DNA of 63,984 nt, the filler included, from Acidimicrobiia bacterium (GTDB taxonomy: Bacteria > Actinomycetota > Acidimicrobiia > Spongiisociales > CAZKJJ01), in the NCBI GenBank assembly GCA_046759765.1. It is 8 parts of 8 records of this genome, joined end to end, with 100 filler letters (N's around TTAATTAATTAA, not from the genome) between each part and the next. Parts side by side here need not be neighbours in the genome. Positions count along the whole stretch, not along the records: positions 9,045 to 17,798 come from JBHICV010000103.1; positions 17,899 to 26,647 come from JBHICV010000104.1; 6 more parts are not named here. One strand, 5' to 3'. Each line of letters starts with the position of its first letter. The stretch's first letter is position 1. The position numbers are program-made. Positions 15,001 through 18,000 of the stretch are shown here, one piece after another.

Positions 15001-18000
15001 ACCGCCACCGCCGGGTTGGCGCGGAGGGCACGGACTTTGGGTGAGGCTCCTGCGGCTCCGAACACGAACTCGGTGCCGTTCCAGGTGAACCAGATCGGCG
15101 TGACCCGAGGAGTGCTGTCGGGAGCGATATAGCCGAGCCTTGCCGGGATGGCCGACTCGAGAAGCTGTTGGGCAACCGGGTGGTCCAATAAGTGGAGGTC
15201 GCCCTGGGGTAGCTGATCGAGGGACATATCCACCTCCTTCGCGATCAGCAAACCTGGGGTGCGTTCTGGTCGACCACGGGTCTCCACATGGCAGCAGCGT
15301 CTTCGGCAACTCCGGCCACGGAGACGATCTCGCCGTCCAGCTGGTGGTCTTTTACCCATTCTTCGGCGGCATGGCGGCTGGTGAAGAAGTTGACCATCGG
15401 GCACCAGGTCTCTTTCAAGTTCACGTCTGCGTGACCATCAAGAATGAACAGCGTTGCATCTCCTTCCGGCTTGCCGTTGCGGAAGGTGATCTCGATCTGG
15501 TCGCCGGTGCCGGGATCGGTGGAGTGGACCGTCCCATCGCCTCCCAGGGCGCCCAGGATCCCGACGGCGTCAAGCGCGCACCATGCCCAGCGAGTGGCGC
15601 CTTCAATATGGATACGATGGCGGGTCGGCTCAATGGAAAGCCCCGCAATGCCCGTCAGACGACCTTCGGGGTCGAGCTCGACACGGCCTCGGGCTCCGGC
15701 CCGATTCATAACCTCGGCGAGAGTCGATCGATCGACACCAGCCGACGTCGCCCAGGTCCCCTGGTCCACCGGATGACCCTGCTCGAGAAGCAGTCGGAAG
15801 CCGGCGGATCGCAGTGCCGCCACCTCAGGTGAAACTTCCTCCTCGTGAAGCTCGGAGAGAGCCTCCGAGCCTTCGTACCCGTTCGCCGGGACAGAACAGC
15901 ACGACTCCAAGGCGCAGTGTGAATCTGACGAATGAGCAGTACTGGCGCGCGGGGCGCAGCAGCTCGCGGCCACGTTGGGGTTGTGGTAATGGGCGGTAGT
16001 CATGATCAAAGGTCCTTTCTCGTCAGCAAACTGTGACATCCCGAACCAGAAGCGACGTTAACTCCACCCATCGAGATTCCTCGATGGGAATAAACCATCG
16101 AAGTTTCTCGATTAATCCCCGTGGAGGTTCAAAGTGTCAAAGGTTGGACAGATCACCTGCGAATGCGAGACCACCACCGCTTGCTGTGTGGCGCTCGAGG
16201 CCGAACCCATTGACGAACCCGTCGCCGAAGATCTAGCTGCCGGCTTCAAGGCACTCGGTGACCCCTATCGCGTGGCGATCGTTCATCTCATCTCCGGCGC
16301 CGCAGGACCGGTGTGCGTCGTAGACATCGAACGGCACCTGCCTCTTGCCCAATCCACGGTCAGTTATCACCTGAAGTCTCTGGTCAATGCTGGTGTGTTG
16401 GATCGGGAGCGTAGGGGCCGGTGGAGCTACTACACGGTCCGTCCCGAGCGGCTCGACACCCTCACCGAATCACTGGATAAGTACGCGCAGAGGATTAGCG
16501 CAAGCAGTTCTTGACCTTCCAGCTGGTGGAACCCGTACGGTTGAGACGCTGACAGCCCGTACGGGTGATGATCGATGGATGAGGTGACCGCTCGCCGAAG
16601 GGCTCGGGTCCGGTTCGGAGCGACAGCACTCGGTCTGGTCTTCGTCGGTGTGGCCGGATACTTGGGCTTCGTCGCCTTTGTGGGCTCTGGCCGCCAAGTG
16701 GCTGCGGGTGTGATGGTGCTGGCAGCAGTGACCGGGTTCGCTGCGTTTTTCTCGCCGTGTTCGTTCCCTCTGCTGCTGACATTCCTCGGCAGACGATCGA
16801 CCGAGTCACCTGGTGCGGCGCTGGCGAGCGCGCTGCGGGTCGCGGCCGGGGCCGCGTTGCTGCTCGGCGCCGTGGCCGCGGTCATTGCTTTGGGAGGGTC
16901 CGCCCTGGGCGGCGTCGTCGAGTTCGACAGCACCGTCGGGAGGCTGTTTCGGCTCGGCGTTGGGCTGTTGTTGGTGTTGTTCGGACTCCGTCAGGCGAGG
17001 CTGTGGGACGTGCGCATGCGGTGGCTGGATCGGATCGCCGGACTGTCGGCCCGGGTGTTTGATCCCGGGCGAGCCACCAATCCTGTCCGCAGTGACGTGG
17101 TGTATGGCCTTGGGTATCTGCTGGCCGGGTTCGGGTGAACCGGGCCGCTGCTCGCCGGTCTGGCAGCTCAAACCTTGACCGTGGGGGCGACGCAGACCGC
17201 CGCGGCCTTCACGGCCACCACCATCGTGTTCGCGCTGCTGCTAGTCGCCGCATCAGTCGTCGTGTCGACTGCCAGCAGCGAGGCTTTGCGCCCGGTCAGG
17301 ATGACCGGACCCGCAGTAAAACGATGGTCCGGCTACGTCCTTCTCGCTGTTGGTGCCTGGTTCATCGTCCTCGCCGCGTTACCCAGTCCGATCCTGGGGT
17401 CTTGACCTCCAATCCGATCCCAGGCATCGCCGAGTTCGCTGAGGTTCCTCACGCGCCTCGATCGAGTGAGTGGGCTGAGGCAAGACGCCGCTCCTTATGG
17501 AAGCGGACGGAGGACGGCTCGATATCGGCCCTCCTGGCTTCTTCGACTCTACGCATCTACCTGGAAGCAGGCCCCAACCGGTGAAAAGGACACCCGCTTA
17601 GGCACTGTCCAGCGCGCCTACCAACCTGAGTGACGTGGAGGCCACCGCGTCTGGCAGCCTCCACTGAGTCGGCTCGTTTCAATTTTCGTGGGCCCACCCG
17701 GTTCAGCTTCCGGCGTGGGGACTTAGGGGAGCAGCAGAAACCTACGGATTATGAGTCCGTTTCAGTACGGCTGTGTGGCCAGCGGAATCGTTTCAGGCNN
17801 NNNNNNNNNNNNNNNNNNNNNNNNNNNNNNNNNNNNNNNNNNTTAATTAATTAANNNNNNNNNNNNNNNNNNNNNNNNNNNNNNNNNNNNNNNNNNNNTG
17901 TTCGGTTCGATCATCGCCTACACCGCCTACATCTATCTGCTGCGGACGGTTCGTCCCGCGCTGGCCACGAGCTATGCATACGCCAATCCGCTGGTCGCAG

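Follow-up and report, generated by a model that had tools for sequence, protein, structure and literature searches.

The gene studied here encodes a membrane protein related to the electron shuttle CcdA, with selenocysteine (Sec) standing in for one of its two key cysteines. The protein is part of a large selenoprotein family that has gone unlisted, and the neighbours and domain fusions of this family probably indicate the handling of mercury-like metals. Nearly all of its members are ended by gene callers at the Sec codon, with the result that many membrane proteins are mis-annotated as 187-residue fragments. Selenocysteine within a membrane-spanning helix is rare. The observation had been put forward in a genome-wide survey's note and was confirmed, and the interpretation offered with it was partly supported.

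Gene, reading frame, and genomic context

The window analysed, 63,984 nucleotides from an Acidimicrobiia bacterium, consists of contigs chained through N runs. The contig that holds the gene spans positions 9045-17798, and since the window is joined in this way, only genes within that span were taken as true neighbours. Window coordinates equal contig coordinates plus 9044, and the gene lies at G000:C103:7531-8358 with one TGA. The features are listed in Table 1.

Table 1. Features of the window contig that bear on the Sec-containing gene.
Feature	Position	Strand	Description
Sec-containing CcdA-like membrane protein gene	16575..17405	+	276 codons, ATG at 16575, terminal TGA included
Cys62 codon (FFSPCSFP)	16758..16760	+	counterpart of CcdA's first redox Cys
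UGA, selenocysteine 188 (GFG-U-TGP)	17136..17138	+	counterpart of CcdA's second redox Cys
SECIS hairpin	17150..17167	+	stem 17150-17156/17162-17167, loop GGUCU 17157-17161; starts 11 nt past UGA
ArsR/SmtB-type metalloregulator	16134..16514	+	HTH_5 E 2.3e-11; NF033788 81.5 bits, above cut-off 55
Candidate operator in the 94-bp merB-arsR gap	16067..16112	.	perfect 9-4-9 palindrome 16067-16088 and imperfect copy 16095-16112
MerB-like organomercurial lyase, divergent from arsR	15245..16039	-	PF03243 E 9.5e-25; 90.7 bits, below NCBIfam equivalog cut-off 193
PPOX/F420-type ORF	14757-15404	-	
Rhodanese-CBS gene	13581..14336	-	in-frame TGA 14145-14147 and 14130-14132, UxxxxU in rhodanese active-site loop
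MerR-family regulator, heavy-metal subfamily	12786..13334	-	best TIGR02051 MerR 98.4 bits, below cut-off 150.85
Second MerB-like gene	11965..12669	-	PF03243 E 2.3e-24; 143 bits, below cut-off 193

Under translation table 11 the frame is cut at the in-frame TGA into a piece at 16575-17138 (187 aa) and a second piece. The survey had read the two as one gene with selenocysteine at its second motif, and this reading held: the frame runs unbroken through 276 codons apart from that TGA, and a covarying hairpin follows it. The motifs FFSPCSFP and GFG-U-TGPLL can be read directly in the window translation, and the N-terminus is kept across orthologues. The last TGA, at 17403-17405, is the true stop, because some orthologues have TAA or TAG at the same place.

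Evidence for the recoding of UGA188 as selenocysteine

We consider it almost certain that SelB and tRNA-Sec insert selenocysteine at UGA188 under the direction of the hairpin with the GGUCU loop. The in-frame TGA occupied a single alignment column in 14 of the 16 matching genomes among 200 others searched from the order, a count that includes the unpublished genome G004 (13 of 15 without it). Elsewhere in the phylum, TGA was found in the same column in all seven matching genomes, five of them published and read (7/7 including the unpublished G462 and G421, 5/5 without both). The column was maintained in sequences down to 40% identity. In seven full-length homologues and in the genome's own paralog the TGA column is Cys, and GYLLAGFG-C-TG is conserved on either side of it in the Cys homologues. 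The 88 residues past the TGA are conserved as well, with T189, G190, L196, L222, G253, G260, and W262 invariant in 21 sequences, and this part completes the six-helix core.

As had been noted in the survey, most database relatives stop at the TGA: 109 of the best 120 clusters at 90% identity stop exactly at ...GFG. Among the best 150 representatives at 50% identity, 67 break off immediately before the TGA column, three begin immediately behind it, and 57 carry Cys in it; of the 141 representatives that include the Cys62 column, 140 have Cys at that position. At E<=1e-10 the family counts 301 clusters. All source names noted among these relatives were of Acidimicrobiia or Actinomycetota; the neighbours in the Atlas belonged to Chloroflexota.

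The Cys paralog of the Sec gene, at G000:C36:8092-8910(-), adjoins both MerB and MerR, in agreement with its earlier placement in a second MerB/MerR locus. Sec and Cys forms thus coexist within one genome, which offers a direct test of what selenium gains for the protein, be it a higher rate of thiol-type exchange or a stronger affinity for soft metals. An origin of the Cys forms through loss of the Sec machinery was ruled out, SelA being present in G009 and G106.

The hairpin after UGA188 was compared with the bacterial SECIS consensus given in the Fig. 2 legend of PMC13188914, namely an apical loop of 3-9 nt whose first two positions are G, a stem of 4-16 bp, a UGA-to-loop distance of 16-37 nt, and a minimum free energy (MFE) of at most -7.5 kcal/mol. 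It agrees with that legend on each point, with a UGA-to-loop spacing of 18 nt, the loop GGUCU, and an MFE of -8.1 kcal/mol; the stem measures 5-7 bp in relatives. The 60-nt fold after UGA188 was no more stable than shuffled sequence (z +1.09), and for this reason the hairpin was judged by conservation and covariation, not by energy. At positions 194-196 only one codon each was used in 15 Sec forms (GCC in 15/15, GGT in 14/14 with Gly, and CTG in 15/15), and other conserved residues nearby use two to five codons in the same 15 forms. Two of three Cys forms deviate at the synonymous sites of these codons. Over 19 sequences the 6-bp stem was 86% paired, a value reached by none of 500 shuffles, and slid controls gave 9-46%. 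Pair 18-30 joins two synonymous third positions and was GC in 11, CG in three, and UA in three sequences, which is covariation; in the hairpin of the window gene, this pair is replaced by a C-A mismatch or a bulge. The genome's Fdh-alpha gene (643 bits, one TGA) served as an internal control and showed the same arrangement, its UGA being separated by 11 nt from a 7-bp stem that closes a GGUCU loop. Loose genome scans for UGA plus hairpin returned 284 and then 86 matches, mostly due to chance, and were used only for picking Fdh-alpha and a thioredoxin-like selenoprotein gene as controls.

SelB (338 bits), SelA (416 bits), and SelD (390 bits) were found in the genome, each above its cut-off. No tRNA-Sec was found in the assembly (92% complete, 308 contigs), where the best Rfam matches were tRNA-Leu and tRNA-Ser and ARAGORN reported no SeC among 47 tRNAs. 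In all five TGA-bearing relatives tested, tRNA-Sec was above the Rfam cut-off.

If the TGA were instead a plain stop, the locus would hold two genes, a pseudogene, or an assembly error, and no selenocysteine. The gene callers, which split the frame here everywhere, and the tRNA-Sec missing from the assembly would fit this. We regard it as scarcely credible, given the single TGA column that persists to 40% identity, the conserved residues beyond it that complete the core, the Cys found in homologues at that column, the covarying hairpin, and the presence of SelA, SelB, and SelD.

Family assignment and predicted fold

With high confidence, the Sec protein can be placed in the CcdA/DsbD_TM superfamily (PF02683; Thermus thermophilus CcdA, PDB 5vkv) as a divergent member; it is made up of an extra N-terminal helix and a six-helix core with Cys62 and Sec188 at the positions of CcdA's intramembrane redox cysteines. 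This homology, claimed earlier, is now shown by profile-profile comparison and not by motifs alone. In hhalign, the profile of the family (A2, 21 sequences) aligned over 208 columns with that of canonical CcdA (A3, 15 sequences from the same order) at a probability of 97.2% and an E of 3.2e-11, and the two cysteines fell in register. The window protein matched nothing in Pfam or NCBIfam even at E<=10, PF02683 included, so superfamily membership rests on the hhalign result. PF02683 was matched by 3 of the 21 family members at E<=1 (best E 4e-6), and its gathering score of 27.1 bits was passed by more distant relatives only, such as P0233 (40.6 bits) and P0243 (41.4 bits). The likeness to CcdA/DsbD_TM extends to the predicted six-helix core and to the motifs SPC..P and C.GP, which lie in separate helices and each supply a single cysteine-type residue. 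The Sec protein differs in having selenocysteine as the second cysteine, the extra N-terminal helix, and a Pfam score below threshold; in addition, no gene for a thioredoxin-like partner accompanies it, and the neighbours and fusions of the family (MerR/ArsR, MerB, MerA, and HMA) are not the cytochrome c maturation genes known for CcdA.

The AF2 model had a pLDDT of 75.2 and a pTM of 0.66. Its best Foldseek match was CcdA 5vkv, with a probability of 0.96 but an E of 0.13 (TM 0.37/0.43). In the wide VIA-align search 5vkv ranked 34th (Z 5.8, rmsd 5.0, 192 residues) and the top rows were unrelated helical proteins with Z of 7-8, indicating that this search does not have discriminating power for the fold. 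The counts of K+R in the loops were consistent with an N-in, seven-helix topology. A sequence search of the PDB with the profile of the family returned nothing at E<=10, and the ESM Atlas, with the natural Cys homologue P0003 as query, returned DsbD-clan leads only.

The family was absent from the selenoprotein lists and from NCBIfam as searched, which bears out the earlier statement that it is not in the inventory; that search took in neither Haft and Tolstoy 2025 nor the supplements of PMC13188914, and the family could be listed in either.

Neighbouring genes and the TsoB-like alternative

The ArsR gene lies 60 nt upstream of the Sec gene on the same strand, and the two probably form one operon. 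The repeats between merB and arsR are a candidate operator. With ArsR, two MerB genes, and MerR on the same contig, the mer-type surroundings described in the survey were found again. Its list of neighbours stood for these genes and for the rhodanese-CBS gene, and its "DF-family" protein is probably the PPOX/F420-type ORF. No merA is present on the window's contig.

The rhodanese-CBS gene had as its best NCBIfam match the rhodanese part of TsoB (E 1.4e-11). TsoB (NF045694) is a rhodanese/DsbD fusion-like selenoprotein, and the present locus resembles it in combining a UxxxxU rhodanese with a DsbD-like membrane domain, here as separate genes 2.2 kb apart. The Sec protein could then be the membrane half of a split TsoB-like system with the rhodanese(UxxxxU)-CBS selenoprotein, serving sulfur, selenium, or metalloid trafficking and not mercury resistance. 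Besides the rhodanese match, this is consistent with CBS or rhodanese ORFs near family members in four loci (L016, L017, L020, and L015) and with an alignment of the window protein to the DsbD-like part of TsoB at model positions 189-391. That alignment is not significant, scoring 8 bits (E 0.65) against a model cut-off of 805 bits; moreover, rhodanese or CBS genes occur in only 4 of 21 loci plus the window and are rarer than MerR. In the table of PMC13188914 both Sec residues of TsoB belong to the rhodanese motif, whereas here the membrane protein bears Sec.

ArsG, a DsbD_2-type organoarsenical efflux permease (NF040495), also counts in favour of the split system. It is a DsbD-clan membrane protein and a named transporter of a thiophilic metalloid, weakly matches 3 of 21 members (best E 5.9e-6), and is among the nearest named clusters in the ESM Atlas. 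This similarity falls well short of family level, and no selenocysteine is recorded for ArsG in the sources consulted. We consider a split TsoB-like system improbable.

Links to metal handling and a possible reductant relay

Soft-metal handling appears to be a likely role for the Sec protein, judging from the loci of its relatives and from domain fusions. A MerR-type gene lay within 1.5 kb in 11 of 21 loci, these loci being kin and not independent; at E<=1e-10 there were only five MerR-type ORFs in the whole genome, a background taken from one genome only. The MerR-type neighbours scored below every NCBIfam equivalog cut-off, and their best matches were split among CadR, CueR, and MerR. In one locus (L023) a MerA (TIGR02053, 566 bits, cut-off 454) is encoded directly upstream on the same strand, in another (L063) a 52%-identical MerA homologue adjoins the Sec form, and in a third (L031) an HMA gene lies directly downstream of the family member. 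Among 32 extended relatives scanned, 15 were fused to an HMA domain, 11 of those being Sec forms, and the CxxC motif was present in 13 of 14 N-terminal HMA fusions. Seven of the 21 loci had no metal-related neighbour, two of these seven being cut short by contig ends. The mercury role proposed earlier is still something that we infer, and it is strengthened by the HMA fusions and by MerA beside two relatives; Hg(II) import specifically we put forward as tentative and somewhat doubtful.

Homology alone predicts an electron relay; this and the location of the genome's merA on another contig, C85, were counted against the metal role. As a CcdA-like relay, the protein would run a selenenylsulfide cycle of Cys62 and Sec188 that passes reductant from cytoplasmic thioredoxin to extracytoplasmic thiol proteins, induced by metal or oxidative stress so that thiols outside stay reduced. 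Both redox cysteines of CcdA are in register with Cys62 and Sec188, more distant relatives from the same profile (P0251, P0255, P0259, and P0265) are fused to thioredoxin-like or AhpC-TSA domains, the genome's mer locus has a CcdA-like gene paired with a redoxin, and most known bacterial selenoproteins are redox proteins in the part of PMC13188914 consulted. In contrast, only one of the 21 loci, L061, had a thioredoxin-like ORF (an AhpC-TSA fragment) no farther than 1.5 kb away, and the window's contig had none, in a scan of ORFs of 80-85 aa or more, whereas canonical CcdA genes adjoin TlpA. The closest fused relatives bear a cytoplasmic HMA metal-binding domain, not a thioredoxin. Two canonical DsbD_TM genes are, in addition, already present in the genome. 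A relay function is therefore unlikely in our judgement.

Taken as a whole, the explanation that combines the CcdA fold, Sec, and metal handling is the one we marginally favour. One seven-helix inner-membrane selenoprotein would be made, with Sec insertion directed by the hairpin that starts 11 nt past UGA188, and regulators of metal type would govern its expression, an ArsR in the present locus and MerR-type proteins in most relatives. In the middle of the membrane, the thiolate and selenolate would together bind a thiophilic metal, for which Hg(II), including that freed from organomercurials, is the likeliest candidate. The metal could then cross the membrane by ligand exchange, using the alternating access that the CcdA fold allows, and would be received by cytoplasmic cysteine pairs in a fused HMA domain, in MerA, or in MerB. 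Selenocysteine is fully ionised at neutral pH and exchanges faster than cysteine, as is established in selenium chemistry, and the same properties would serve it as a ligand here.

The CcdA-fold thiolate-selenolate pair may more generally be the site of translocation in permeases for mercury-like soft metals that form an unrecognised and widespread class, in part with a fused cytoplasmic HMA domain, and the protein would then be the first CcdA/DsbD-fold selenoprotein with an intramembrane Sec. In at least 67 clusters at 50% identity the protein is truncated at the Sec codon. We hold this wider proposal to be close to evenly balanced, falling slightly on the side of doubt. If the metal reading is true, mercury biology in marine and soil Actinomycetota would gain a new type of transporter.

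Comparison with known mercury transporters

Selenoproteins are already recorded among MerT-family mercuric transport proteins, for which the table of PMC13188914 has a PF02411 entry with the motif "C/SxxU". The Sec protein resembles these (PF02411; NF045683, MerT/CopZ fusion-like) in being a small membrane protein of metal loci with Sec for a metal-binding Cys, and HMA fusions exist. By analogy, it may work like the MerT-family selenoproteins if the metal reading is right. It differs in having no match to PF02411 or PF03203, the models of MerT and MerC, and in its seven CcdA-type helices as against three in MerT (PMC3466566). No MerT or MerC scored over threshold in the genome.

In Gram-positive and actinobacterial mer loci, a pair of thioredoxin-like (TlpA/TrxA) and CcdA genes lies beside merA and is annotated "mercury transporter" (PMC12195606 Table 4). 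The Sec protein shares with this pair the CcdA superfamily, the link to mer genes, and an ArsR-type regulator. The survey's note had gone further and read it as a Sec form of the CcdA-type mercury transporter found in mer operons of high-G+C Gram-positive bacteria. This identity is not supported, because another gene of this genome, on contig C85 and nearer to canonical CcdA, is the one that shows the arrangement. On that contig the genome's merA is accompanied by a separate ArsR gene, a redoxin gene, a small MerT-like ORF, and the CcdA-like gene; the last adjoins merA and the redoxin and has Cys, not Sec. In profile comparison the C85 copy, which alone represented the TlpA/TrxA-paired mer CcdA in place of annotated actinobacterial sequences, matched canonical CcdA with 97.4% (E 1.3e-11) and the Sec family with 92.4% (E 5.3e-7). 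The Sec family is its own clade, distinct from the CcdA paired with a TlpA-like protein beside merA in the same genome. The scarcity of thioredoxin-like neighbours described above also speaks against the proposed identity, as does a tblastn search of 72,556 plasmids, in which the Sec protein had no match and canonical CcdA matched 388 records. Among the plasmid candidates considered for a mer CcdA locus, pMAB23 has MerT and MerH, not CcdA, and two plasmid CcdA loci proved to be ordinary TlpA-CcdA or cytochrome loci.

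Selenocysteine in a CcdA-like gene

The Sec CcdA-like gene starts with ATG and lies on contig C103 of the source genome, one of the contigs that make up the window with N runs between them (Table). Translation with table 11 breaks its frame in two, the first part being a 187-aa ORF, and the read-through product has 276 residues with the motifs FFSPCSFP (Cys62) and GFG-U-TGPLL. Direct reading of the frame thus confirmed the genome-wide survey's note, which had described one 276-aa protein called as two genes at an in-frame TGA. Cys occupied the TGA column in the genome's own paralog (G000:C36), as also stated earlier, and in seven database homologues of full length (260-338 aa), with conserved flanks. 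Among 200 other Spongiisociales genomes, 16 had a match at E<=1e-20, and 14 of these 16 carried one in-frame TGA, always within G-F-[GS]-U-T-G-P (13 of 15 when the unpublished G004 is left out); G009 and G106 had Cys instead. A "TAG" listed for G106 proved to be the gene's terminal stop. In a phylum sample of 400 genomes, all seven matches outside the order contained one TGA (two of them, G462 and G421, are unpublished), and the five published ones all read GFGUTGPIL. Most database relatives had been said to stop at the TGA; among the best 120 clusters at 90% identity, 109 stopped exactly at ...GFG, 7 were full-length with Cys, and 4 were other. The family profile retrieved 910 proteins at E<=0.001 from 1.84 billion representatives; 301 of them had E<=1e-10, and 73 had E<=1e-30. 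Sixty-seven of the best 150 representatives ended just before the Sec column and 3 started just after it; in the remainder, the column was Cys in 57 and Trp in 1, and 22 were fragments.

A hairpin with the loop GGUCU starts 11 nt after the UGA. Each of the three codons at its top was frozen in 15 Sec forms, G004 included: GCC in 15/15, GGT in 14/14 Gly codons (one sequence had AGT, Ser), and CTG in 15/15. All other conserved four- or six-fold residues nearby used 2-5 codons each, and two of three Cys forms showed synonymous-site differences at the hairpin-top codons. In 19 published sequences, the 6-bp stem was 86% paired, a value reached by 0 of 500 shuffles, with slid controls at 9-46%, and three pairs were altered on both sides. 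Pair 18-30, formed by two synonymous third positions, was GC in 11, CG in 3, UA in 3, and other in 2; in the window's hairpin this pair is C-A. The 60-nt fold after the UGA was not unusually stable. The hairpin agrees with the bSECIS constraints in the Fig. 2 legend of PMC13188914, and in the genome's Fdh-alpha gene, which scored 643 bits, has a single TGA and served as an internal control, the UGA is followed after 11 nt by a 7-bp stem with an identical GGUCU loop. The frozen codons and covariation support the SECIS hairpin proposed earlier, and the Cys homologues, the column-constant recurrence of TGA, and the covarying hairpin agree on selenocysteine in the second motif. SelA, SelB, and SelD of this genome all scored above cut-offs; tRNA-Sec was not found in this assembly and was present in 5/5 TGA-bearing relatives tested.

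Family and fold

No Pfam or NCBIfam model matched the window's protein, no PDB sequence matched the family profile, and PF02683 was touched by 3 of 21 family members (best E 4e-6). An hhalign comparison of the family with canonical CcdA from this order (15 sequences) gave a probability of 97.2% (E 3.2e-11, 208 columns). Cys62 and Sec188 aligned with the first and second CcdA cysteines, respectively, bearing out the suggested CcdA/DsbD-type relation. For an AlphaFold model built on the family alignment (pLDDT 75.2), the best Foldseek match was CcdA 5vkv, a weak one (E 0.13, probability 0.96), and VIA-align did not single out CcdA. Loop charges were consistent with seven helices and the N-terminus inside. 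We filed the protein as a separate clade within the CcdA/DsbD_TM superfamily. A literature search for a selenoprotein of CcdA/DsbD or mercury-resistance membrane type found no description. Selenoproteins named in the 2026 review PMC13188914 include one of MerT type and TsoB, in which a Sec-containing rhodanese part is fused to DsbD; the review has no CcdA or PF02683 entry, and Haft and Gwadz's 2022 preprint contains no CcdA or DsbD term.

Gene context and a probable metal role

The ArsR, MerR, two MerB, and double-TGA rhodanese-CBS genes reported nearby were all located on C103 (Table).

Table. Features of the window and of related loci
Feature	Contig or locus	Position	Strand
Sec CcdA-like gene	G000:C103 (window 9045-17798)	16575-17405	+
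In-frame TGA (codon 188)	C103	17136-17138	+
GGUCU hairpin	C103	17150-17167	+
Terminal TGA	C103	17403-17405	+
ArsR	C103	16134-16514	+
Palindrome pair	C103	16067-16112	
MerB-like gene	C103	15245-16039	-
PPOX/F420-type ORF	C103	14757-15404	-
Rhodanese-CBS gene	C103	13581-14336	-
Its two TGA codons	C103	14145-14147, 14130-14132	-
MerR-type gene	C103	12786-13334	-
Second MerB-like gene	C103	11965-12669	-
UGA of thioredoxin-like ORF	C102	7930-7932	-
NF041238-like ORF	Contig after C103	19924-20541	-
SelD gene	L056, G000:C108	6375-7298	-
Third CcdA-like gene, with MerR-type gene	G000:C199	209-2345	-
merA locus	L075, G000:C85	5197-8286	
DUF3179 gene (G009)	L022	281-1180 (approx.)	-

The two TGA codons of the rhodanese-CBS gene give UxxxxU in the rhodanese active-site loop, and the best NCBIfam match of its product was the rhodanese part of TsoB (E 1.4e-11); this product may act together with the Sec CcdA-like protein. 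Between merB and arsR, which are divergent and 94 bp apart, lie a perfect 9-4-9 palindrome and, 27 nt further, a second copy 83% alike, likely an ArsR operator pair; a simple scan there detected no sigma-70-like promoter.

Neighbourhoods reaching 1.5 kb from the gene were compared at 21 loci: those of 15 published orthologues from the order, that of the genome's own paralog, and five more from the phylum. Eleven contained a MerR-type regulator, four a CBS or rhodanese ORF, and two a PPOX-type ORF. In L023, MerA (566 bits against a cut-off of 454) immediately precedes the gene on the same strand, a 52%-identical MerA homologue with a C-terminal vicinal Cys pair was near the gene in L063, and MerB, an HMA gene, and a P-type ATPase were neighbours in L015, L031, and L064, respectively. 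Seven loci, two of them shortened by contig ends, had no metal-related gene within this distance. Only five ORFs of this genome resembled the neighbour MerR genes at E<=1e-10, and three of the strongest four were on contigs with CcdA-like genes. The MerR neighbours scored below every equivalog cut-off, so these scores do not identify their metal. The genome has a third CcdA-like gene, more distantly related (DsbD_TM, 26.2 bits), which is followed after about 530 nt by a MerR-type gene in the same orientation.

The survey's note had read the gene as the CcdA-type mercury transporter of high-G+C Gram-positive mer operons in a Sec form. In this genome, that arrangement belongs to another gene. 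Its merA (571 bits, N-terminal HMA) is on C85, where ArsR and then MerA occupy one strand and a small ORF (weak MerT match), a redoxin, and a CcdA-like gene the other; an ECF sigma factor is also present. The C85 CcdA-like protein aligned better with canonical CcdA than with the Sec CcdA-like family, so the TrxA-plus-CcdA type annotated in PMC12195606 (Table 4) is a different gene here. Whereas C85 pairs CcdA with a redoxin, a thioredoxin-type ORF was found within 1.5 kb of the Sec family in 1 of 21 loci (L061). No MerT or MerC exceeded threshold in this genome.

Among 32 relatives picked for extra length from the 150 representatives, 15 carried an HMA domain, N-terminal in 14 (11 of these in forms truncated at the Sec codon), and 13 of the 14 contained CxxC; four more distant relatives had thioredoxin-like domains. 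Metal pumps and MerA exchange metal through a cytoplasmic HMA. Since the HMA of the fusions likewise lies on the cytoplasmic side, in a membrane protein with its N-terminus inside, we read the Cys62/Sec188 pair as a putative soft-metal site, probably for mercury.

Other candidate selenoprotein genes

The SelD gene has one in-frame TGA and is likely itself a selenoprotein gene. A thioredoxin-like ORF on a different contig from the Sec CcdA-like gene (W-A-S-W-U-x-x-C) has the hairpin GCUGCC-GGUCU-GGCAGC, with the same loop, 20 nt after its UGA and is likely another. The ORF on the contig after C103 matched NF041238 (AhpD-related CFYUT (seleno)protein) at 164.7 bits, below the cut-off of 175, and looks like the portion downstream of a Sec codon. 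In G009, a gene of DUF3179, a selenoprotein family listed in PMC13188914, lies downstream of the Cys form.
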